Below are positions 3,431 to 57,895 of a stretch of 64,000 bases of DNA, one piece after another (position 1 is the first letter of the stretch; each line of letters opens with the position of its first letter). The DNA lies in assembly GCA_000004985.1 (NCBI GenBank), contig GG738933.1, one strand, 5' to 3'. The position numbers and the translations under genes were made by a program. The notes below the pieces were generated by a model. The model ran no database searches, was not told the DNA's origin, and was given only the letters and a program-made list of their open reading frames with translations. Source of the DNA: Naegleria gruberi. Lineage: Eukaryota.

Positions 3431-4339
3431 GTTGAACAACAAGAACAAGAACAACATGAAGAAAGTATTTCAATCCTCTCATATAATGTAAATTTTGCTG
3501 GATGTGGACGTCAAACAGGAACCTACTCGAAGAGAAGAGGAGGTAAGAGAGTTGAGCAAGCCATCGAAGAGGCTATGCATCCACATCCTCATCATAATCA
3601 TCAAGCTGGTTGCGACTTGATTTGCCTGCAGGAAACTCATAAAGGATGGGAAAAGGCTCTAAATACATCTCTGATAATTTCCACTCATTTTCCTCATCAA
3701 TATTGGGATCATTCCAATGTGGAGCAGTGCAAACCGAGTGGAGCTGCTGTGTTGGCTAGGAGTTATTTGGATATTAAGGTAAGTGTTCTGGAGAGTGGTG
3801 TAGAGGGTTCTGTCTTTCCTGCCCTGCATGTTCTTGTGAAGGATAGGAGGAATGGCCACTCTTTTCAAGTGTTGAGTGTTCACTTGAGACCACCTCTTGG
3901 ATTTGATGATAACCAGAGGGCGAATATTGAACTGTCAGCTCTGTGGACAACTAGCTCAATACGTTTGAAGGAGATGCAGAGCTATTTGGAACAAGCTCTC
4001 AGATTGAGTTCACTTCCCTTGTTAATTGTTGGAGATTTTAATGAATCTTTTGAATCTGGAAGTTGGCTCTCTCCATCCTATGCAGATTTCCTGATGGAAA
4101 AGAAGGTATGTTATTTAGAATTTGAATTGTCTTTTTCATTTGAATAGTTTGTTGATGCATTGGATAATGAAACGAGTTGGTATTGGCCATTAAGATGGAA
4201 TATTTCAATGTGGGCATCGTTTGATCACATTCTTTATAAGAAGGAGGAGTTTGAAGTGGTGGAAAAGAAGATATTGGTGGAATTTAAAGAGAATGCTTCA
4301 GACCATTTGCCTTGCTTGGCAAGATTGAAAACAAGGTGA
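3431..4339 (+). CDS. endonuclease/exonuclease/phosphatase (EEP) family protein; 3' part is 2 exons (..4106, 4148..4339) with a 41-nt GTATGT..AATAG intron; true start codon upstream not resolved
   Basis: EEP motifs LSYNVNFAG, LICLQETHK, LLIVGDFNE and, after the intron, SDHLPCLARL. The reading frame is open from 3380 with no ATG until 3575, so the 5' end is uncertain. Confidence 0.6.
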
Positions 4340-4405: not shown

Positions 4406-4478
4406 GCCGACATAGCTCAGTTGGGAGAGCGTAAGACTGAAGATCTTAAGGTCCCTGGTTCGATCCCTGGTGTCGGCA
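4406..4478 (+). tRNA. tRNA-Phe (anticodon GAA)
   Basis: 73-nt cloverleaf. Acceptor GCCGACA/TGTCGGC plus discriminator A; D-arm GCTCAGTTGGGAGAGC; anticodon loop CTGAAGA; variable loop AGGTC; T-arm CCTGG-TTCGATC-CCTGG. One T/T mismatch in the T-stem relative to canonical Phe tRNAs. Confidence 0.8.
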
Positions 4479-10493: not shown

Positions 10494-11936
10494 ATGTTTT
10501 TTCAATTGATTAACAACTTGCCCATCTATGCAAAAAACTTCATTTCTCTAATGGGACGCTCAAACGTTCTTCCAATTGACTTGATGGTTCTTGTCAAGGA
10601 ATTTACAGAGGCACTCATTGTAACTATCTTCTATCCAGTTGTTACATTTGTTGGATTGTATCTCCAATTCATTAGATGGATTTGGGTCATGCTATTCAGA
10701 ATGACAGTTCCAGCTCCTCAACAATTGGCATCTGGCATTCAAATCAAATCATGTATCATTACTGGTATTGCATCCAATGAAGAAATGGGTAGCAATCTAT
10801 CCAACTCCAACACTGACAACACCATTGCCATGGCATACTCTTTGGCTAAGAGTTTGTGTTACAGTTGGATGAAAATCTTGGAACAAAACATTGGAGCCGA
10901 TCAGGAACATCGAATGATTACCTTGGTTGGACGTTCTGATGATTATTTGAGCGAGATGAGAGAAAGTTTGATTAAAGAGTTGGGAGAATCTTTCGTAAAG
11001 AATATTGAGATTCGTATTAAGGTTGGAGATGCTTCAGATGAAGACAAGATTAGAAAGATTGTTACTGAGTATGATTATGATTTGGTAATTGCTTGTCAAC
11101 CTTGTGGATTTGTAACCACTGCAGAAGAAGGAAAATCAAGACAACCTGTCAGAAGACGTGACATTAAGGGAACTTCTTTCAAGCAAGGTGAAGATAAGAA
11201 AGTTTCTCCTCGTCGTACTAACTCTACATCTTCATCATCCTCATCAACTGATCAAGATAGAGAAATTGACAATTCTTTCACCAATTTGACAATTATTGGA
11301 GAAGAAACCATTCGTCAACAATTCGCCAACATTATTCAACCAACTTTGAACACCATCTTGCCAGCAATTAAGCAAGCCAACGAAAGAGGAGTGATCAACT
11401 CACCAAAACATGTCGTTGTTGGTTTAGTTAATGAAGTAGATCCAACAGTTTCTAATCATTTCGTCAATGAATTTGCTCTCCAATTGCCAAGAGTTGTCTT
11501 TACACAAATTTCCTCATTGGTCAACCGTTCTCTCTCCACCGAAACTCTCTTTGGAAATCAAACTATTAGAAACCAAATCGTCGAAACTGACCTACCAACC
11601 AAATCTCAATTAGTTTTCCAAATGATTAATCCAATCACCAACATGACAGATAGGAGATTCAATCAATCTGTTTCCTCTACATATCAATTCTCCACCTCTG
11701 CATCAACTTCTTCAACCTCTCAAAATGGTAAAGATAAGAGATCTCTCACCAATCCAATTCTTCCTCAATTCTTGGATAGGATTCCATCTCAAATCTCCAA
11801 TCAAATTCTTAAGGAAATTTACAAGGGAATTGAAGTGATTGATGTTAATCTTCCAATTCGATATGCCTCCGAAAGATTCCTCTCCGTATTGCCTCATTCC
11901 ATTGGTCAATTCACAAGAACTATTTTTAATTTGTAA
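10494..11936 (+). CDS. hypothetical protein, 480 aa, N-terminal hydrophobic segment
   Basis: aaaaaaaATG start; long clean ORF; no recognisable domain. Confidence 0.55.
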   Translation: MFFQLINNLPIYAKNFISLMGRSNVLPIDLMVLVKEFTEALIVTIFYPVVTFVGLYLQFIRWIWVMLFRMTVPAPQQLASGIQIKSCIITGIASNEEMGSNLSNSNTDNTIAMAYSLAKSLCYSWMKILEQNIGADQEHRMITLVGRSDDYLSEMRESLIKELGESFVKNIEIRIKVGDASDEDKIRKIVTEYDYDLVIACQPCGFVTTAEEGKSRQPVRRRDIKGTSFKQGEDKKVSPRRTNSTSSSSSSTDQDREIDNSFTNLTIIGEETIRQQFANIIQPTLNTILPAIKQANERGVINSPKHVVVGLVNEVDPTVSNHFVNEFALQLPRVVFTQISSLVNRSLSTETLFGNQTIRNQIVETDLPTKSQLVFQMINPITNMTDRRFNQSVSSTYQFSTSASTSSTSQNGKDKRSLTNPILPQFLDRIPSQISNQILKEIYKGIEVIDVNLPIRYASERFLSVLPHSIGQFTRTIFNL

Positions 11937-15228: not shown

Positions 15229-17392
15229 TTAAGGATCTACGTTGGCAGATTTGAAAGAACCCAATAATGGAGATTCGACAAGTTTAGTTTCACTTAGTTT
15301 TCTTTCTAACATTCGAATTTTAGCTTGCATGTTTAGAATAGTTTTTCCACTTTCTCTATTTTCAACTGCCTTTCTCAAATCTTTAAGGAATGCAATTCTA
15401 AACTGTGCTGTCAGTGTCGAATTTGCAGATCCAACAAAAGTTGCAGATAATGGATCTTGAAGTTTCATATTTCTTACACGAATGTCAGCTCCCAAATCAA
15501 TTAGTTTCGTACAAATATCCTTTCTTCCAAGTTGTGAAGCTACATGAAGTGGCGTATCACTACTCAAATTCTTTTGATTCATCATGACATGAACATCCAT
15601 AGACGAATCTTCTGACATGTACGAAATGGCTATTTCCAACATTTCAACTCTTCCATAACCAGAAATCCAATGCAACATGTTATTCTTGTTCTTATCTCTC
15701 AAATTGGCAAGTTTTTGTCTATCAGAATAGAAATGATTCAAAATCCATTCGAATATTTGATCACAACCTTGTTTGTTTCCAATAGTTCTGATGGCAAACC
15801 AAATTGGTTCGTTCATGGTGATGGTTGTGTTGGTGGATGGGAAGGTTGGTTTGAAATCATAGTTGGAAATGAGTGATCCCAAAAAGTCTAATGTCTTTCG
15901 GCTAGTTTCTTGCTTGTCAGTACACAATAACATGCACAAGGTCAGTAAATTGTGAACTTCTTCCCGATCTTCCTTTGCTGCACACGATGTTGATGGACTT
16001 GAAACACCAAAACTTGAATCTAATCCATGTCTATTTCCAAATAAAGCCTTATTAACCATTGGATCAGATGCCTCAATTGAGCTACCATTGGAAGATGACA
16101 TTTTACAAGTGGCATTCATGTTAGCTCCTCGAGAAATCAAGAAGTGAGCAATATCAAAGTGACCTCTCAATATAGCCAAATGTAAAGCACTTGGAAAATC
16201 TCTACGTGATTGAGTTTCTGATTCTCTTGCTTCAACATCAACTTTGACTTCATCAATTAGATATTTGACAACATTGAATGCACCACCGAGAACTGCACTT
16301 GTCAATGGAGTATGATAATAATTATCCACATGAAGATTAACATCAATATTTGACTTTTCCAGCATTTTCTTGACGAGATGTAATCTGTTATATTTACAGG
16401 CATAGTTAATGAGAGAAACTCCTTGGTGGGTGATTCTGGCAAGTTGATCACCAGTGAGACCCATCTTGTCAAAGATGAAATCCATGCACTTGTCGTTTAA
16501 TTCTTGCTCCTTTTGGACAGTTTCGAATGATTTGGACGAAAGGGAATTATGAGGTGTACTTGTAATGATTAATTTGAACATTAACAAGTACATGTTCTTC
16601 TTACATCTTGGATCGAGATTTTCATGTTGGAGAGAAATGACACTAGATTCGTATTGAGTTTCGTATTCGTCTTGTAATCGAATAAGTTCTCTAAATAATT
16701 CTTCACTTTCATTGAAGAAACAGGCTGTGTGAATTGGTTGTAAACCTCTTGAATTGGTTCCAAAAAGGGATTTCTTGACAAGATCTTTGACTGATGGCAT
16801 TTCTTCTGATTTGAGAGTTTCTAATTTTTGTAAAGATTCGATTAATGATTTGAGGATTTTAGATTCTGCATTTGGAGTTTCACAAAGCAAGTGAACAATA
16901 TTACCATCATCAAGATAACTTGACAAGCCTTTGATCATTATTGGAAAACATGAATATTCTGTATAAATTTGCAAGTACTGATTATTCGAAAGGTAATACG
17001 AAAGTCCACTACAATCATTCTCATCAAAATAATCTCTCAGCCTCTCTGTCATCTTTTTGGTAACATATCTTTCATCCAAATTCAAAGCATACGAAGGATT
17101 AGTCTCCAAAAAAACATCAATCATCTGTTTGACAGTCTTATTAAACGAAAGGTTTGAATTCGGCAATTGTTCACCAGTTGTTGGATTAGTCTGACGTCTA
17201 ACTAACCATTCTTCAATAGCCTCTCTTTCAAAAGTATCACCAAGAGCAGTGACAACTGGATCACACATTATTCTTCTCGTAATTGGACAATATATCAAAT
17301 CTTTGATTGGATTCGAATCTGTTTGTTGCTGACCAAGTGATGGACTATTCATTCCTAAAGCAGGGCTGTTGCGATTTGACATTCTTTGTGTT
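15229..17392 (-). CDS. U-box E3 ligase-like protein with ankyrin repeats (about 720 aa from ATG 17392; the tool's upstream GTG start is rejected)
   Basis: U-box: IKDLIYCPITRRIMCDPVVTALGDTFEREAIEEWL. Ankyrin-like repeats: HLAILRGHFDIAHFLISRGANMN and TPLHVASQLGRKDICTKLIDLGADI. Confidence 0.75.
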
Positions 17393-17707
17393 GTTTTTTT
17401 TGTGTCGATTAATTTGATTAACAGCTGACAGTTCCTTACCACTCATTATTTATAACAAACACACAAACAGTTGCAGTTAGCATGAAAAACGCTCGATGAT
17501 GTGCTTGTGCAAACAAGTTTAAGTGGCAAGTAGAAAATGTGATGGAGAATTGAGAAGGTTGCCCTTTAAGGCAATAACAATTTTGGCGGGAAAGTTTGAT
17601 GTGAGGTGAAGTGTTTGCCTAGACAAAATGTATTGAGGTGCGTCGAGTTGTTTCTTGTTGATTTTAAAAGGCTTGTTAGAGGTGGGTATCTATCAGAAAT
17701 CAAAGAT

Positions 17708-17724
17708 GCGAATGAAAGAAAAAT
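17708..17724. repeat. 17-bp direct repeat gcgaatgaaagaaaaat (3'-side copy flanking the retroelement); candidate target-site duplication
   Basis: identical 17-mer also at 23137..23153. Extended similarity aaagNNgcgaatgaaagaaaaat on both sides. Confidence 0.55.
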
Positions 17725-17757
17725 CTTTTAATGCATTTTGGCGAATCTATTCAGATT

Positions 17758-20700
17758 CTATTTCTCACTTCGTTTGTAAATAGGTTTTGAATCAATTTGA
17801 TAAATAAGGAAGGCTCTTCCAATAAATTTGGAAATAGCAGCTTGGATCTCTGGCCATTTCTTTAAGACGTTATGGTTGGGGATCTTATCTATATATTCAT
17901 TCTCAAAAAAGGTTATGCCTGAGTGATGGAAATATAGCACATATGAGTATTGGAAAGGAATTTCTTGGATAGGGGAGAGTGAACACTCAGGTCTATCAAG
18001 TATTTCTGTTAATCTATTTTGACAATATCTTCTTTGATTGTCTAGTCTGGGGCATTCATGTATGTAATGTTCTAAATTTGAGGGACAATTACAATCTGAG
18101 CAGGTTGGATTCAATTCATCTTTCTTCTGTGTATATTTGATATGAGAATTTGAAGCGTTTCGCCAAATTTGATATTTGGTTTTAGGTGACAGTCGTGACT
18201 TGAGGTAGGCTACATTAATTGATGACCAGCTTTGGTTTGGAATAAAGTTGGGATTACTATCAATTGCTTCGTGCATCTCCTTAAGTTGGCGATTTACAGT
18301 CATTCTTTTGCAATCAAAGATCACAATATCGTTTTTCATAAGTAAATATTGGTTGGTTAGTAAGGATTTGATATCAAAGATCTTATCTCTTTCAGTTCCA
18401 TCTTTCGCAAGGCGATCTACTATTATATTTTCCTTATCTTCATGTCCTTTAACTTTGATTATATAAACTGAAATATTCTTTTCTTTTTGGATATTGAAAA
18501 ATTCAGTTTTGAAAGGGAGAAAGTTTCCTTTGTATTTTCTGGATAGGACATCTATTGCAACTTTGCTATCTGTGTGTATTCTAGCGGTTGTTCCATTTGG
18601 AAGTAGTTTCATTGCAGTGATAATTGCTCCTATTTCTGCAACATTGTTAGAGTATTCATTATTGATACGGAGTGAAAGGCTTTTACAAGGTGATAACCTT
18701 CCACCGGATTCATATATATTAATACCCATACCTGTTTTACCTGCAAGCTTGGATCCGTCTGTATGGATAATAAAGCATCTATTGGTTTCATTCACTTTCT
18801 TTAATCTGAATTTGGTATGATTCTTTTTGAAATCTAAATTATATTTCTGAAGTATTGACATCCATTGAATGAAAATGTTATTACTATTATCATTGGTATG
18901 ACTAATTCCAAATTTAAAAGCTTTCTGAACTAACTTGTTATTGGAATTTGCTATTAAGGAGAGAGTTCTTAAATTAAGTCTGTCTGTAAATTCTTCAATT
19001 GAGGGAACACCGAGTCCACCTTCTTCTAATGGTAGGTGGAAAAAAGCTGTTTTGGTGGTTCTGTCTAGTTTTAACTTTGTTCTGAGTACATTTCTAATGC
19101 AAATATCTATTCTTGATACCAGTGATGGAGGAATGACATTAAGTTTGGATAGATGTGTAAATAAACTAATCACTTTAGCATGAAGGACTTGTCTTAAATT
19201 ATGGGGTTGAAGTTTGAGTATTGGGAAATATTTCAGTGATTCATTGAATTTAGCTATCTTGCTTTCAATATCTTCTTTGACCAATTTATCTTCCCAAGGG
19301 TAGTGTCCGAGAACTCTAAGATTTTTCTGAATGGGAATTGGCACTTGTTTGATTTTTGGTATGATTTTGCTTTTTGTGGGAAGGAGAGTGGCAATTGACT
19401 TTTTTGCATTTAATTTGAAAAGCAATTGAGATAACCAGTCGTCGATGTTATCTAGTCTTCCATTATAATTTGTGAATCTGTCGCATACTATATTCATATC
19501 GTCAGCGAAACAACAAAGACCAATTTCGTTTGCATTCAATTCAGATGGTTCTATTGGTAGTTGCCATTGGTCTATTGCTTTGTCTATTATGAGTTGTGTA
19601 ATACAATCGTAAATAAGAGGTGCTAATGGGCAACCTTGAGGAATTCCTCGTGTTTTTGTGAAGTTATTTGATAGATGTTTGTCAATTTCTAATTGTAAAC
19701 TGTGATTGCTGTATGCATTAATTATAAAATCAGTTAGTGGTGTTGGGAATTTACAATGATTAAGGGCCATCCTAATAACCGGCATCTCCACTGCGTCGTA
19801 GGCACCTTCAATGTCAAGGTTGACTAATATAAATGTTCTTCGTCTAGTTTTCAAGGCCAGGGAGGAAAGTACTATTCCATGGTTCATTGTATTTCTATTA
19901 TTTATGAAGGCCTGTTGTCTCATATTAATCTGAGAGCTAGCCCATTCACATAATTTGTGGGCGATTAAATTAAAAAGGATTCTATAAAATATTGGTAGTA
20001 TTGTGATGGGTCTAATATCTCCTAATGTTTTAACTTCTCGCTTTGGAATCAGTTTAACCCAACCGTGTTTCCATTCTTGGGGGATATCTCCTTGTGTTAA
20101 ACATTTGTTAAACTCTTCAACTATTAAAGCTAATTTCTCTAATTTTAAGCCCTTGATGATATCTAATGAAATTTCGTCTTGTCCTGGTGTATTCGATTTC
20201 ATTCTTTTAATGGTTTCTTTTACATCTCTATATGAAATCCGACCTATATCTCTAGGACCTGAAGTGATAGTGGATGGACTTGGCATAAAGGTTGGTGTTT
20301 GATTGGAGGTTGTAAACTTTTTGGAAAAATAATCTAAAATTTCTTGTTCTCCAAATGGCAATTCTTTCCAGATAATTTCTTTAGAATGCAGTTTTCTATC
20401 AAATTGATACATGTGGGAGGCGTGACTATTGTTATATTTGTCAGTTAATTGTTCTTTGATTTCTTTACATGATTGGATGTGAGTCTCTTTAAGAATTGTT
20501 TGTAGTTCTGATATTTCATCAAGTCCAACATTTGGGTCTTCTAATTTACCCATAATCTTATTTTCTAATTTACGAATTTTACCTTTAAATATGGAGGAAA
20601 TAATGCTACCACCAAGTCTGTCAACTTTGGTTCCATATTTTGCAATGTTGTTTTGTATTTCTGCATTTAATTCTTGAAATGTATTGGCATTTGACGTATT

Positions 20701-21486
20701 TATCTCTTTGATCATTTCTTCTCTTTTCTTCTTACCAATATATGATCTCCAATTTAAATGTGATTTGAATTCAATATCAATGTAAAAAGGGATGTGATCA
20801 TTACTTGTGAGCGGTGGAAGGAGTTCTTCTTTGATAACCTTAATATCTTTAGACACGAAAATGTGGTCTAATCTTGAAGTGGTGATTCTATTCTGTTGTC
20901 TTCTAATGTAAGTCTTATTATTAGTCTTATATTCTGTTAGTTGGAGTAGATTAAATAGCCAGCACCATTCTTTATCTCTACCGTTTGAAGGATTAATGGT
21001 ATTGATATTAAGATCTCCATTAATTATGACATGTTCATCTCTACATGTCAGTACTGCATTTGTTATACTGTTCATGGCTTCAACATCATTTTCTTTATCA
21101 TCAACTCTTCCACTAAGATATGGAGTGAAAATATTAATTGGTATACCTTTGCTTTCGAATCGTGTCCATTGAAGAACACCTGGAATTAGATTGATATTAG
21201 TAATATTTCTCTTGTGAGGGTTGTTAAGGAAGTGCATAACAGCCGTCCCTTTTTTTCCTTTCGTTGTATTCATTAAGGAGTTAAATAATATATAGCCTGT
21301 TCCTGAATTTTTAACTTTATATTCTAGATCAGGAGTATTTAAATGAGTTTCGGTTAACGAAATCATGTGTATTTTATGATGAAGACACATTGATTTCACT
21401 TCTGGTGTAACCGATTTCTTACTAGCATGTTTATACAGGCCGTTTACATTGTAACACGCTAGTCGTAAATTACTATAATTACTCAT
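17758..21486 (-). CDS. retrotransposon ORF2: APE-type endonuclease, reverse transcriptase, RNase H and a C-terminal Cys/His motif, 1242 aa
   Basis: N-terminal LRLACYNVNG...ISLTETHL (EEP/APE). RT motifs including FADDMNIVCD. RNase H: IIHTDGSK...AEIGAI...HTDSK...KVKGHEDKENI..D.LAK. C-terminal CSDCNCPSNLEHYIHECP. Confidence 0.9.
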   Translation of the reverse strand: MSNYSNLRLACYNVNGLYKHASKKSVTPEVKSMCLHHKIHMISLTETHLNTPDLEYKVKNSGTGYILFNSLMNTTKGKKGTAVMHFLNNPHKRNITNINLIPGVLQWTRFESKGIPINIFTPYLSGRVDDKENDVEAMNSITNAVLTCRDEHVIINGDLNINTINPSNGRDKEWCWLFNLLQLTEYKTNNKTYIRRQQNRITTSRLDHIFVSKDIKVIKEELLPPLTSNDHIPFYIDIEFKSHLNWRSYIGKKKREEMIKEINTSNANTFQELNAEIQNNIAKYGTKVDRLGGSIISSIFKGKIRKLENKIMGKLEDPNVGLDEISELQTILKETHIQSCKEIKEQLTDKYNNSHASHMYQFDRKLHSKEIIWKELPFGEQEILDYFSKKFTTSNQTPTFMPSPSTITSGPRDIGRISYRDVKETIKRMKSNTPGQDEISLDIIKGLKLEKLALIVEEFNKCLTQGDIPQEWKHGWVKLIPKREVKTLGDIRPITILPIFYRILFNLIAHKLCEWASSQINMRQQAFINNRNTMNHGIVLSSLALKTRRRTFILVNLDIEGAYDAVEMPVIRMALNHCKFPTPLTDFIINAYSNHSLQLEIDKHLSNNFTKTRGIPQGCPLAPLIYDCITQLIIDKAIDQWQLPIEPSELNANEIGLCCFADDMNIVCDRFTNYNGRLDNIDDWLSQLLFKLNAKKSIATLLPTKSKIIPKIKQVPIPIQKNLRVLGHYPWEDKLVKEDIESKIAKFNESLKYFPILKLQPHNLRQVLHAKVISLFTHLSKLNVIPPSLVSRIDICIRNVLRTKLKLDRTTKTAFFHLPLEEGGLGVPSIEEFTDRLNLRTLSLIANSNNKLVQKAFKFGISHTNDNSNNIFIQWMSILQKYNLDFKKNHTKFRLKKVNETNRCFIIHTDGSKLAGKTGMGINIYESGGRLSPCKSLSLRINNEYSNNVAEIGAIITAMKLLPNGTTARIHTDSKVAIDVLSRKYKGNFLPFKTEFFNIQKEKNISVYIIKVKGHEDKENIIVDRLAKDGTERDKIFDIKSLLTNQYLLMKNDIVIFDCKRMTVNRQLKEMHEAIDSNPNFIPNQSWSSINVAYLKSRLSPKTKYQIWRNASNSHIKYTQKKDELNPTCSDCNCPSNLEHYIHECPRLDNQRRYCQNRLTEILDRPECSLSPIQEIPFQYSYVLYFHHSGITFFENEYIDKIPNHNVLKKWPEIQAAISKFIGRAFLIYQIDSKPIYKRSEK

Positions 21487-23123
21487 TTAGAAAGAGTACA
21501 AGATGATGAGCTTTTTGATTCTTCATCATCTTGCATAATAGAATTATTAGTACTATTATTTATATAATGGGAGATTTTGTCAATAAGTTCCATTGTATCA
21601 GCTAATGCTTTCTTAAAATCACGCAGTTCAGTTTCAATATTAGATAGTCTAGTTTCAAATAGATTGGTTGTTGTATTAATAGTAGGAGTAACTACAGAAT
21701 TAGTGGTTGAACTGGTATTATCGTTAGATTGTATAGGATTGATCATAGGATTAGTTACTTCCGGTAATTTAGAGTTAGTTAGAAATGGATATTGTTTTTG
21801 TTTTCTTTCAATTATTTCATCTAATTGTTTAATAGATGGTACGAAACAGTAACTGGTTCCATCAGTAATGTTTTGTTTGGTATTGAGAACAATTTTCTTG
21901 TCAATAAATAGATTCATTTCGTCAATATTTGAATGGACGACTTTACATAATTTAAAGGTAGTGGTATTGGATTTGTTTTTGGATTCAGTTATCATGCATT
22001 GGTTAGTATTGAAATCTTTTTTAATGCGTTCGTATACACGAGTAACACCATCGATGATTTCCTTGTTTGTAAAGGTAGGTGGAAATAAACATTCTGAAAC
22101 ATTAGTAGGAGTTTCATTACGCAATTGTTCAACAGATTTGTAATTAGTTAAATTAAGCTTCTTTCTAATAACTTCGCACACATCTTCGTTTTCGTATGAA
22201 ACTCTAATTATATATTTACCATGTGATTGGTTTGTATACATTTGGGAGATAAGTATAGTATTATCGTTATTAACTGAGTGTTTGATTAGTGATTTAATCA
22301 TATCAATGTGTTGTGAATATATGTGTGTAGAGTGAGTTAGAGCGTACAAGCTATGCTCGAATACAGCAGGTGATGGGAAGAATTTCAATATTAAATCATT
22401 GTGTACACTATCAAGCATATCTTTGCAAAGAATATAATTGTCATTACTATTGCAATGAAGATTAATGACATTACTAGTTTGGGGTCTTATTTTAATGGTG
22501 GCAAATTCCCCAAAGATGTCCATAATTTGTTCCATGAATTTGTTATTAATTCTTTCATAGCAGATAATATTAAGTGAATGTGTCAAATCGAATTTCTTAT
22601 TTTGCTTGACTGGTTTTTTACCATAGAATGAAATTGAGCGTTTCATTTTGATTTGTTTTGCTATAGTTTGTTTGATACTTGGTTGAGCTTTTATAGGGTG
22701 ATACTTCACCATATCCAAATATGGAGTAAGTTGTAGTTTGGTATTTTGCTCAATAGGGTTCTTACTACATTCATATTTTGGTTTAATATTACTAGTAATG
22801 GAATGAATTTGTTGATTTCTATTTTGGGGAGTTGACTTAATATTTTGGATTTCTGAAGTAGGTTTTTTAAATGAATCAGTAGAAATGTTAGTGGTAGAAG
22901 TATCTTCTTGATTAATATTATCAACTTTAACCTTTACATCTTTGTCTTGTACAAACTCGGATTTAAACATTATTTTGTCGTAAATCTTTTGCATAGTTTC
23001 CATGTATTTTTGAAGACGAATATTTTCAATCCGATATGAATCGACTGCTTGTTCTAACACAAGAATCCTGTTAGTCAGCTGCAGACAATTTATTGGATCA
23101 GGAGGGCGGTCATGTAAAGGCAT
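21483..23123 (-). CDS. retrotransposon ORF1 protein, 546 aa, N-terminal coiled-coil-like region
   Basis: ATG at 23123. Its TGA stop overlaps the ORF2 ATG (ATGA). No CCHC knuckle recognised. Confidence 0.75.
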   Translation of the reverse strand: MPLHDRPPDPINCLQLTNRILVLEQAVDSYRIENIRLQKYMETMQKIYDKIMFKSEFVQDKDVKVKVDNINQEDTSTTNISTDSFKKPTSEIQNIKSTPQNRNQQIHSITSNIKPKYECSKNPIEQNTKLQLTPYLDMVKYHPIKAQPSIKQTIAKQIKMKRSISFYGKKPVKQNKKFDLTHSLNIICYERINNKFMEQIMDIFGEFATIKIRPQTSNVINLHCNSNDNYILCKDMLDSVHNDLILKFFPSPAVFEHSLYALTHSTHIYSQHIDMIKSLIKHSVNNDNTILISQMYTNQSHGKYIIRVSYENEDVCEVIRKKLNLTNYKSVEQLRNETPTNVSECLFPPTFTNKEIIDGVTRVYERIKKDFNTNQCMITESKNKSNTTTFKLCKVVHSNIDEMNLFIDKKIVLNTKQNITDGTSYCFVPSIKQLDEIIERKQKQYPFLTNSKLPEVTNPMINPIQSNDNTSSTTNSVVTPTINTTTNLFETRLSNIETELRDFKKALADTMELIDKISHYINNSTNNSIMQDDEESKSSSSCTLSK

Positions 23124-23136
23124 TTTTTTAAAAGTC

Positions 23137-23153
23137 GCGAATGAAAGAAAAAT
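23137..23153. repeat. 17-bp direct repeat gcgaatgaaagaaaaat (5'-side copy flanking the retroelement)
   Basis: identical to 17708..17724; lies 13 nt upstream of the ORF1 ATG on the element strand. Confidence 0.55.
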
Positions 23154-23999: not shown

Positions 24000-24617
24000 A
24001 TGCTTCGTTTTGCAAATCCAATAATAACAATTTCAACTCCTTCGAATTCACGAACGAATCCAGTCATTCAGTTAGCTCCTGGATCGACTCTTTCGAATAA
24101 TCAGCCGCAAATTTCTAATGAACAAATTGCCATGATCAATGCATTGGGTAATTATACAGGTGAATCTGAGGAGAAATGTCTTCGTTATTTGATCTTTTTT
24201 GGTTGGAACTTTGAGTTGGCATATAAGGCAACTGTTTTATTGAGCCAAGAGCTGTGTGAAAGAACCAAATTGTCTAATTTGTTTCTTGCGAGAAGAATTT
24301 TAGAAGAAGCACAATTTGATGTGACGTTGTGTCATCAGCGAATGGAATTAGTCTTGTATTTGATGAATAGAACTAATTTGGTTCATGTATTTGCCTATGA
24401 TTGCTTGCAACAATATCAATGGAATATCAACAGTGCTTTACAACGAGTTTTTGAGTTGGCTTCCATGAATAGATTACCTTCTCATGCATTTTCAACAATT
24501 CCTAATTTGCAAGTGCAACAACAATCGAATAACAATCAACCAGATTCTGCCAGATCACTGCTTGCTCTTCAAACTGCTTACCATAACCAATCGAGACACA
24601 ATTTATTTAAATTGTAA
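24000..24617 (+). CDS. protein with two UBA-like (TAP-C/NXF-C-like) modules, 205 aa
   Basis: ESEEKCLRYLIFFGWNFELAYKA and AYDCLQQYQWNINSALQRV resemble the ..KCLQDNNWDYTRSAQAF.. pattern of the UBA-like TAP-C fold. Confidence 0.5.
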   Translation: MLRFANPIITISTPSNSRTNPVIQLAPGSTLSNNQPQISNEQIAMINALGNYTGESEEKCLRYLIFFGWNFELAYKATVLLSQELCERTKLSNLFLARRILEEAQFDVTLCHQRMELVLYLMNRTNLVHVFAYDCLQQYQWNINSALQRVFELASMNRLPSHAFSTIPNLQVQQQSNNNQPDSARSLLALQTAYHNQSRHNLFKL

Positions 24618-56812: not shown

Positions 56813-57895
56813 CTAATATAGAAAGTTGGGATTGAAGACGCCAGGTAAAAGAGATGAACAGTACATGACCGGAGTTATGTCATGATCTCTTTCGAATAGA
56901 TGATCTTTCCATAGAGAGTGAATATTCTCAACAATTCGTCTAGTTTCTCCATCTTTTTCATTTTCTGGAATAGTTTGCAATCCAATCGAAACACCAAAGT
57001 CTCTGAAACCTAATCTTCTTCTAGTACTCTTAATCGTGCTTTCGAATATCTCTTCAATATTAGAAATGGCAACTTTTCTCATATGATTCGCCCAATCTTC
57101 ATCAGGAAACCAACTGGTCAACCAAAGAGTTTCTCCCAAATCCAGAGGATCCGAACTCTGATACATTAAATACTTTCCCATCACCATTCCCTTCATTTCT
57201 TCAATTTCTCTATTCAAAACACTTCCATCCACATTCTTTCCTTCTTTTAATTGCTGGTTGACCAATTGTAAAAGTCTATAAGTAACATAACCATCATACG
57301 GATCCAAATTTCCTTCAGATCTCACAACTGGTCTCGAGCCATCAATGGAAATCTTCCAGAACATCCTCAATCCACGTGAAGAACTATGATTGATAAACTT
57401 GTTATGCATGGATTGAGCCATTTCAATTGCCCATTCATTGTATTTCACATCTCGAGTGATTAGTGACGTTCTGTTGAGGGCAAACATCCATTTGGTGAGA
57501 TAGTGAAAGTATTGACCATCGCCATCTTCGTCATCTTCATCGGCTTCCTTGCCAATTCGTAAACCTCCCAACAGGGGATGTTCAGCATTGGATTTTCCTT
57601 TCGAATAATTTAGTAGATTAGTTATTAGAAACTGCATGTACTTACCCAAATAATGTTGCAATGAACGATCCTTTCCAAGAACTTGATGCACCTCTTCAAT
57701 AAGTGCCTTAGCTTGTTCCAAATACGAATCTTGACCACTTTCCACATGCAACGAAAGGAAATTACAAACTGCAAACGCATCAGTCCACAAGTATCGAGTT
57801 TGTGTTTCAGATTTCAATGGTTTGGGTTTGTAGTGTGCTCCACTGAAATTGCCATACACTTGTTCCATCACTTCAATGCATTTATCTTTTAACAT
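56813..57895 (-). CDS. hypothetical protein, 360 aa, possibly an (alpha/alpha)-barrel glycosidase-like fold
   Basis: ATG start; clean ORF; W/Y-rich helical repeats (RYLWTDAFAV...); no confident family assignment. Confidence 0.5.
   Translation of the reverse strand: MLKDKCIEVMEQVYGNFSGAHYKPKPLKSETQTRYLWTDAFAVCNFLSLHVESGQDSYLEQAKALIEEVHQVLGKDRSLQHYLGKYMQFLITNLLNYSKGKSNAEHPLLGGLRIGKEADEDDEDGDGQYFHYLTKWMFALNRTSLITRDVKYNEWAIEMAQSMHNKFINHSSSRGLRMFWKISIDGSRPVVRSEGNLDPYDGYVTYRLLQLVNQQLKEGKNVDGSVLNREIEEMKGMVMGKYLMYQSSDPLDLGETLWLTSWFPDEDWANHMRKVAISNIEEIFESTIKSTRRRLGFRDFGVSIGLQTIPENEKDGETRRIVENIHSLWKDHLFERDHDITPVMYCSSLLPGVFNPNFLY

Follow-up and report, generated by a model that had tools for sequence, protein, structure and literature searches.

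Introduction

Naegleria genomes are poor in transposable elements. Among the long interspersed nuclear elements (LINEs), L1 nicks its target at a T-rich site (TTTT/AA, the slash marking the nick), and Tad1 elements are reported to lack an A-rich tail and to be flanked by target-site duplications (TSDs) of 14-17 bp. Zorro3 of Candida albicans, a member of the L1 superfamily, is 5763 bp long, has two open reading frames (ORFs) and a very short 5′ untranslated region (UTR), and integrates in poly(A) tracts (PMC7175516). Here we describe an element of Naegleria gruberi that lies at positions 17,708 to 23,153 of a 64,000-nucleotide stretch of contig GG738933.1 (assembly GCA_000004985.1), referred to below as the window. 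Judged from its sequence, it is very probably a full-length, apparently coding-competent LINE with an apurinic/apyrimidinic (APE)-type endonuclease, 5412 bp in length, on the minus strand, bounded by a 17-bp TSD and belonging to a heterolobosean lineage. The ORFs, their domains, the TSD and the constant ends of the family all agree with the intact, full-length non-LTR (long terminal repeat) retrotransposon that the original prediction had proposed from the window alone.

The element shares with L1-type LINEs such as human L1 the presence of two ORFs and an ORF2 protein (ORF2p) with an N-terminal APE domain, a reverse transcriptase (RT) and a C-terminal CCHC motif. A short, degenerate nick consensus, TSDs of about 15-17 bp, 5′-truncated copies and extra bases at the 5′ junction are further common features, and similarity to L1 ORF2p structures is also detected for the Naegleria RT (1e-16). 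It departs from L1 in its A-rich nicked strand (A(n)T/GA), the absence of a poly(A) tail, the presence of an RNase H domain, an ORF1 in which Pfam searches find no Transposase_22/RRM signature, and a 5′ UTR of 13 nt compared with about 900 nt in L1. Zorro3 is of similar size, likewise has two ORFs and a very short 5′ UTR, and has a homopolymer tract on both sides of the element. Its flanks are poly(A) on the sense strand and it carries an A tail, whereas the Naegleria elements have sense-strand T-run flanks and no tail; by analogy, Zorro3 may be regarded as the nearest functional analogue documented, with opposite polarity.

The ORF2 order of APE, RT and RNase H followed by a Cys/His motif is that of the I, Tad1, Ingi, Loa, R1 and Nimb clades. 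Most members of the I/Tad1/Ingi-type clades have gag-like CCHC knuckles in ORF1, whereas the Naegleria ORF1 has none. Precise, tail-less 3′ junctions are shared with R1Bm, TRAS1 and SART1 and with the R2 3′ UTR, the Naegleria counterpart being a small conserved hairpin in the 3′ UTR, and, as in R1Bm, TRAS1 and SART1, the flank that follows every Naegleria copy could pair with the target primer. R1Bm, TRAS1 and SART1 each use one defined multicopy target; the Naegleria target, in contrast, is a degenerate A-run followed by TGA that is scattered over the genome. The TREs of Dictyostelium are, like the Naegleria elements, protist APE LINEs with two ORFs, but they integrate next to tRNA genes. Neither the window copy nor any of eight copies in Naegleria fowleri has a tRNA gene within a distance of several kb, and an earlier suggestion of a TRE-like element fails on this point. 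The sole tRNA gene in the window, tRNA-Phe (GAA) at 4406-4478 (+), is about 13 kb from the element.

We assign the element to the APE-type LINEs because it combines a non-LTR RT with an intact catalytic box, an APE domain N-terminal to the RT and an RNase H domain C-terminal to it, and because its N. fowleri sister family has TSDs that differ by copy and a 5′-truncated copy (L011) that keeps its 3′ end.

Organization of the element

The element runs on the minus strand from a 13-nt 5′ UTR through ORF1 and ORF2 to a 33-nt 3′ UTR, with no tail. Its features are as follows.

17725..23136 (-): element body, 5412 bp, full length, with boundaries set by the TSD
23137..23153 (-): 5′ copy of the TSD, 17 bp, ATTTTTCTTTCATTCGC on the element strand; the flank before it reads ...ATC
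23124..23136 (-): 5′ UTR, 13 nt, GACTTTTAAAAAA, an A-rich leader resembling host-gene leaders
21483..23123 (-): ORF1, 546 aa
17758..21486 (-): ORF2, 1242 aa, its ATG sharing bases with the ORF1 stop (ATGA)
20785..21453 (-): APE-type endonuclease domain, ORF2 aa 12-234
19303..20049 (-): RT domain, ORF2 aa 480-728, FADD box intact
18394..18774 (-): RNase H domain, ORF2 aa 905-1031
18052..18102 (-): C-terminal CX2CX7HX4C zinc-knuckle-like motif, ORF2 aa 1129-1145, CSDCNCPSNLEHYIHEC from aa 1129
17743..17758 (-): 3′ UTR hairpin GAAUCU-GAAU-AGAUUC, whose first base is the final base of the stop codon
17725..17733 (-): 3′ end ...CATTAAAAG, in which ATTAAA, a hexamer similar to a poly(A) signal, lies 2 nt before the end
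17708..17724 (-): 3′ copy of the TSD, 17 bp

The two uninterrupted, overlapping ORFs of the original prediction are present at these coordinates, and their junction reads ...tct aaA TGA gt.... Its description of an element with almost no 5′ UTR and neither a poly(A) nor a simple-repeat tail also holds, as the window element ends in ...CATTAAAAG directly at the TSD.

The ORF2 protein

The predicted APE-RT-RNase H architecture of ORF2p with a C-terminal Cys/His motif is recovered by Pfam for the three domains and by reading CX2CX7HX4C at aa 1129. RVT_1 (2.9e-26) and RNase_H (6.4e-14) are matched at the positions given above, and the N-terminal region is matched by Exo_endo_phos_2 (2.9e-05) and Exo_endo_phos (3.7e-04), both under the curated cut-off. 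The ORF2 translation contains the APE motifs YNVNG, LTETH, GDLNI, SRLDH and NDH, corresponding to the catalytic N..E..D.N..D..DH series, and the APE domain of the relatives lies above the precomputed Pfam thresholds. Within the FADD box of the RT, A661, D662 and D663 are invariant in both of our alignments (A1 and A2) and F660 in A1 only. The RNase H residues D910, E951 and D1024, as well as C1129, C1132 and H1140 of the zinc-knuckle-like motif, are invariant in A2. The best PDB matches of the RT are the R2 and L1 ORF2p RTs (1e-16 to 8e-21), with bit scores of 76.6 for R2 and 61.8 for L1, these being the only such RTs that the PDB offers; the two scores do not assign the RT to a clade. When the APE domain alone was searched, only generic ExoIII and sphingomyelinase were matched.

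The ORF1 protein

ORF1 has no match in Pfam or PDB sequence searches, even at E=10 or E=1, and its translation contains no CCHC knuckle (no C-x-C-x-H/C-x-C pattern). A single-sequence AlphaFold2 model has a predicted local distance difference test score (pLDDT) of 35.6, with long helices predicted at low confidence at both ends. Homologues are the ORF1 of a related element on contig L001 (28.6% identity) and the N. fowleri ORF1 (hmmsearch 1.5e-21), with homology in all three of the sampled lineages, at identities of 23-29%. The ORF1 protein is best described as a lineage-specific protein without a known domain.

The repeat at the element ends

The 17-mer GCGAATGAAAGAAAAAT occurs exactly twice in the 64 kb of the window, at 17708-17724 and 23137-23153, and no further occurrence appears when two mismatches are allowed. 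The first reading of the window had placed one copy of the 17-mer 13 nt before the ORF1 ATG and the other 33 nt past the ORF2 stop, and both spacings and positions are borne out. The surrounding region has a GC content of about 32-36%, and the ORFs are publicly annotated as 'predicted protein', which would be consistent with a chance repeat in AT-rich intergenic DNA beside an old, immobile retroelement-derived gene pair. We regard such a coincidence as having a negligible probability: none of 100 shuffles yielded two matches to the 17-mer, and the longest word common to the 100-nt flanks of both ORFs is 17 nt as observed, against a maximum of 14 in 2000 shuffles. Furthermore, the 17-mer sits exactly at the element ends of the family, and a near-identical second copy of the element exists in N. 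gruberi.

Two further similarities had been noted around the repeat. The match of 23 bp with two mismatches is real (17702-17724 against 23131-23153), but the additional 6 nt are flanking DNA at one copy, whereas at the other they are where the element itself begins, and only four of these bases (CTTT) agree. Because this extension is not conserved in the relatives, we take it as chance. The shared cttttaaaa, which was thought to lie further out, is in fact inside the element, where it appears as an inverted complementarity of 7 nt between the element ends (17725-17731 and 23128-23134; 5′ GA-CTTTTAA, 3′ TTAAAAG). The complementary ends could fold into a small panhandle; as this is not seen in the N. 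fowleri relatives, the complementarity is probably due to chance.

Flanking repeats in the Naegleria fowleri sister family

Relatives with an ORF2p identity of 42-53% to the window element were retrieved. They comprise a 5279-bp Logan contig that contains a whole element (L001, ORF2p 52% identical), two ENA metagenome contigs (L003 and L004), and eight loci of a multicopy N. fowleri family (L002 and L005-L011, ORF2p 42-51% identical). Over 5592 bp, identity among the N. fowleri copies is 99.0-99.7%. Full-length copies all start with GACGCAAAAAAA(A)TG, a start also given as GACGCAAAAAAAATG..., and all copies end in ...CTAATTAG, without a tail. Directly outside these constant ends, six independent insertions have six different direct repeats of 15-17 bp.

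L002: ATTTTTTTTTGATATTA, 17 bp
L007: ATTTTTTTTCTTACTA, 16 bp
L008: ATTTTTTTATGTCGGCT, 17 bp
L006: ATTTTTT(T)GAAATGAC, 15-16 bp
L010: ATTTTTTTTTAATTT, 15 bp
L011: ATTTTTTTTGTTTTCC, 16 bp, 5′-truncated copy

The 5′ TSD of L010 contains a gap of 10 N. The truncation of L011 is at reference position 3951, and its 16-bp repeat still abuts internal element sequence. Differing TSDs of 15-17 bp in six of six insertions, one of them 5′-truncated, are the signature of target-primed reverse transcription.

The ends of the window element can be placed by homology with this family. Its start, GAC, located 13 nt before the ATG, is homologous to the N. fowleri GACGCAAAAAAAATG, and its end, ...AG, to the N. 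fowleri ...TTAG; both ends also align with those of L001. As the ends of the window element correspond to the N. fowleri element ends, the 17-mer lies outside the element. The sequence comparison therefore supports the 17-mer as host DNA that was duplicated at insertion, the TSD of a full-length insertion as originally suggested.

The original prediction had also considered that the repeats could be terminal modules of the element itself, for which it would be decisive whether other copies share one 17-mer. Such terminal direct repeats would represent a short, R-like terminal redundancy that is regenerated in each cycle. The window element and L002 indeed agree in having a repeat of 17 bp located 13 nt before the ORF1 ATG, with 11 of 17 bases in common, and the L001 contig has, at its ends, sequence that resembles parts of the 17-mer. 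However, the near-identical N. fowleri copies have six different repeats, which share only an A and a T-run, and a terminal module leaves unexplained how the truncated L011 keeps its repeat next to internal sequence. We thus reject terminal repeats for the sister family and consider them highly improbable for the window copy. Neither LTRs nor terminal inverted repeats are present at the window element, where the 17-mer is the sole terminal repeat, and no integrase, tyrosine recombinase or GIY-YIG domain was found in a Pfam search of the element proteins. The differing flanking repeats of the near-identical N. fowleri copies speak against a terminal-repeat retroelement of the LTR, DIRS or Penelope-like type.

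Several observations weigh against an intact LINE with a TSD. The test of the repeats was made on the sister family, so that the TSD of the window copy follows by homology, and the APE scores of the window element are those below the curated Pfam cut-off. The 11 of 17 agreeing positions between the window and L002 repeats are read as a target preference, with a thin consensus drawn from seven sites. Two of the eight N. fowleri copies, L005 and L009, have no matching repeats beyond the T-run. Throughout the 5′ flank and the element, L005 matches L010 and L009 matches L006, with divergence starting inside the 3′ repeat, past the T-run. The members of each pair are on different contigs, and the stretch they share covers the whole element and 1.5-2.7 kb or more of 5′ flank, at 98.7-99.8% identity. 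L005 and L009 were therefore not counted as independent insertions; they may be segmental duplications, ectopic recombinants or other element-mediated rearrangements, or assembly misjoins at the repeat.

Most N. fowleri copies are, moreover, frame-disrupted, which may reflect homopolymer errors of long-read assembly and not decay. ORF1 and ORF2 of L002, L007 and L008 are split into 2-5 pieces despite a mutual identity of 99.6%, and L005 alone keeps an ORF2 of 1212 aa. There is no in-frame ATG for the N. fowleri ORF2 after the ORF1 stop (L002 9201-9300; the same in L005, L007 and L008). The ORF2 frame (+1) is open from 42 nt upstream of the ORF1 TAA, and the stop is followed by an ATG-TAA mini-ORF. 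Unlike the N. gruberi ORF2 with its ATGA overlap, the N. fowleri ORF2 may thus be expressed by frameshifting or non-AUG reinitiation.

Target site

A target consensus was derived from seven TSDs, namely the six of N. fowleri and that of the window. All seven begin with an A followed by T5-9 (A followed by T6-9 in N. fowleri), and the flank base before the TSD is C in all cases, and TC in six of the seven. On the first-nicked strand, the nick site reads 5′-A(5-9)T/GA-3′ in six sites and ends in /GC in the remaining one, with a G directly 3′ of the nick throughout. Since the GA falls on the side of the nick that does not serve as primer, site choice must depend in part on the specificity of the endonuclease and not solely on primer-template pairing.

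Over their first 6-10 nt (ATTTTT...), the repeats agree across copies and species, and an A followed by T6-9 is found after every relative. This pattern could also be produced if the 3′ ATTTTT(C)TTT were a U-rich tail templated from the element RNA, with a true TSD of only about 7-10 nt and the upstream T-run selected by homology. L006 fits such a tail, its T-run being T7 downstream but T6 upstream, and the hexamer similar to a poly(A) signal before the element end suggests that transcripts reach the flank. Yet the T-run has the same length within the pair in five of the six N. fowleri insertions and varies between T7, T8 and T9 among insertions, which argues for target DNA and not for a templated tail. 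The mismatch of L006 also vanishes in L009, which has the same 5′ flank and T7. We therefore consider a templated tail very unlikely; the shared ATTTTT start of the repeats is best read as a preferred target and not as element sequence.

The 3′ end

A 16-nt motif, AATCTGAATAGATTCG, directly follows the stop codon and is identical in the window element and L001, despite only 52% ORF2p identity. The motif folds as a 6-bp stem in both the minimum free energy and the centroid structure. In N. fowleri, a different 6-bp hairpin (GCACCA-GUG-GUGC...) is located at a similar distance from the element end. Compared with shuffles, the 3′ regions of the window element, L001 and L004 are not significantly more stable (z -0.24 to -0.42), and only the N. 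fowleri segment stands out (z -2.1). It is thus the conserved sequence, and not the stability of the fold, that speaks for the hairpin, which may have a role in recognition by the RT.

Copies of every lineage sampled lack a poly(A) or simple-repeat tail. In the window element and its relatives, AATAAA or ATTAAA is found 0-13 nt before each element end. Given a potential poly(A) signal so close to the end, transcripts may run into the flanking AUUUUU, and such a read-through AUUUUU would form the complement of the A(n)T-3′ primer at the following target.

Proposed mechanism of insertion

We propose classical target-primed reverse transcription, in which the endonuclease of ORF2p nicks the strand reading 5′-A(5-9)T/GA-3′, the order of the nicks being itself part of the model. 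Primed by the A-rich 3′-OH, cDNA synthesis would start at the final base of the element itself (...AG), and no poly(A) tail would be copied. The other strand would be cut 15-17 bp away, and repair would produce the TSD; the 5′ junction often gains one or two additional bases. Precise initiation at the 3′ end could be provided by the conserved 3′ hairpin or by pairing of the A-run primer with the read-through AUUUUU. With a 5′ UTR of only 13 nt, the element would require an internal promoter, and in N. gruberi ORF2 would be translated by termination-reinitiation at AUGA. Taken from seven sites, the traits of the family are the missing tail, the 13-nt 5′ UTR, a fixed stagger of 15-17 bp and an A(n)T/GA nick site that falls together with host start codons.

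Insertion at host start codons

The nick motif resembles the context in which Naegleria genes begin. Of 23 runs of six or more A followed by TG in the window, 15 open an ORF of at least 100 aa, as do 7 of 14 such motifs in 86 kb of N. fowleri flanks; in Naegleria the motif is largely leader plus start codon. Most long ORFs of the window begin at such a motif, for example those at 10494, 12120, 43854 and 58255 (+) and at 57895, 15092 and 6782 (-). An A-run with ATG is a good predictor of start codons in the N. gruberi genome, and leaders appear to be very A-rich. In four of the six independent N. fowleri insertions, the ATG that straddles the nick is the start of a flanking, divergently oriented host gene.

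L002, 7370-7387: TELO2 start
L007, 2720-2736: start of a DUF4211 gene
L010, 3032-3047: start of a Nas2_N gene
L011, 6968-6984: start of a TPR gene

Three of these four gene starts are exactly the annotated start codon; the remaining one lies in frame with it, 11 codons upstream. Each gene that was hit is parted from its upstream region by the 5.6-kb element. The rate of insertion at start codons is in line with the base rate of the motif, and sequence preference therefore suffices as an explanation. The insertion in the window (A5T/GA) is not at a long ORF; the reading there is MIGG followed by a stop. Only tentatively, we raise the possibility of a tail-less LINE lineage that targets start codons, in which the A-run with T/GA corresponds to leader plus ATG, and which lands head-to-head on host starts and rewires promoters.

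Genomic context, copies and annotation in N. gruberi

The window element is inserted in an intergenic region of 1.1 kb, about 280 bp upstream of a U-box/ankyrin gene. This neighbour (15229-17442, -) encodes a U-box and ankyrin-repeat-like protein and is located on the same strand, downstream of the 3′ end of the element. Beyond the 5′ end is a Q/N-rich ORF of 205 aa (24000-24617, +). The element splits the 1.1-kb intergenic region that these two genes formerly shared.

ORF1 is identical to the N. gruberi 'predicted protein' P0025 (99,287-bp scaffold), and ORF2 matches the N. gruberi models P0001 and P0024. The public ORF2 models (P0001/P0024, 813 aa) join ...QEWKH to EEGGLG..., by which about 345 aa, including the whole RT, are lost as a false intron. 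With the RT removed in this way, the nature of the element is hidden by the annotation. A second N. gruberi copy is found on a 182,562-bp scaffold that bears NAEGRDRAFT_54134 / EFC36780 and the ORF1 fragment P0026, with 812 of 813 identical residues in ORF2 and 386 of 387 in ORF1, as compared at the level of protein models; its ORF1 model begins at M160. A difference of one residue per ORF indicates a young family with at least two copies in N. gruberi. No further copies were detected in the window by tblastn or blastn. N. gruberi also has paralogues of 53% identity, and both N. gruberi and N. fowleri carry more diverged sub-families (P0004, P0027, P0028). The two 'predicted protein' genes of the window are probably one intact LINE that was recently active.

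Distribution of the lineage

An exhaustive profile-free search of 1.84 billion representatives returned only 29 proteins at E<=1e-30. Those checked among the 29 are proteins of Naegleria or Willaertia magna and a few arthropod genes with nested LINEs. The remaining matches are generic LINE RTs of about 25-27% identity, which are the nearest outside the Heterolobosea. JGI metagenomes contained no relatives detectable by the ORF2 profile, nor by the 3′ hairpin motif followed by ATTTTT. On these searches, Naegleria and Willaertia, both Heterolobosea, are the only genera in which the lineage has so far been found. The literature searched, from which Repbase was absent, contained no description of LINEs in Naegleria.

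Implications

If the genes hit at their start codons stay expressed, the 5′ end of the element would have to provide an outward (antisense) promoter. A LINE lineage that lacks a tail and nicks at a defined A(n)T/GA site would be a compact system in which to study a precise, poly(A)-free start of reverse transcription by APE LINEs. The tendency to insert at start codons matters for gene annotation and for strain variation in the pathogen N. fowleri.

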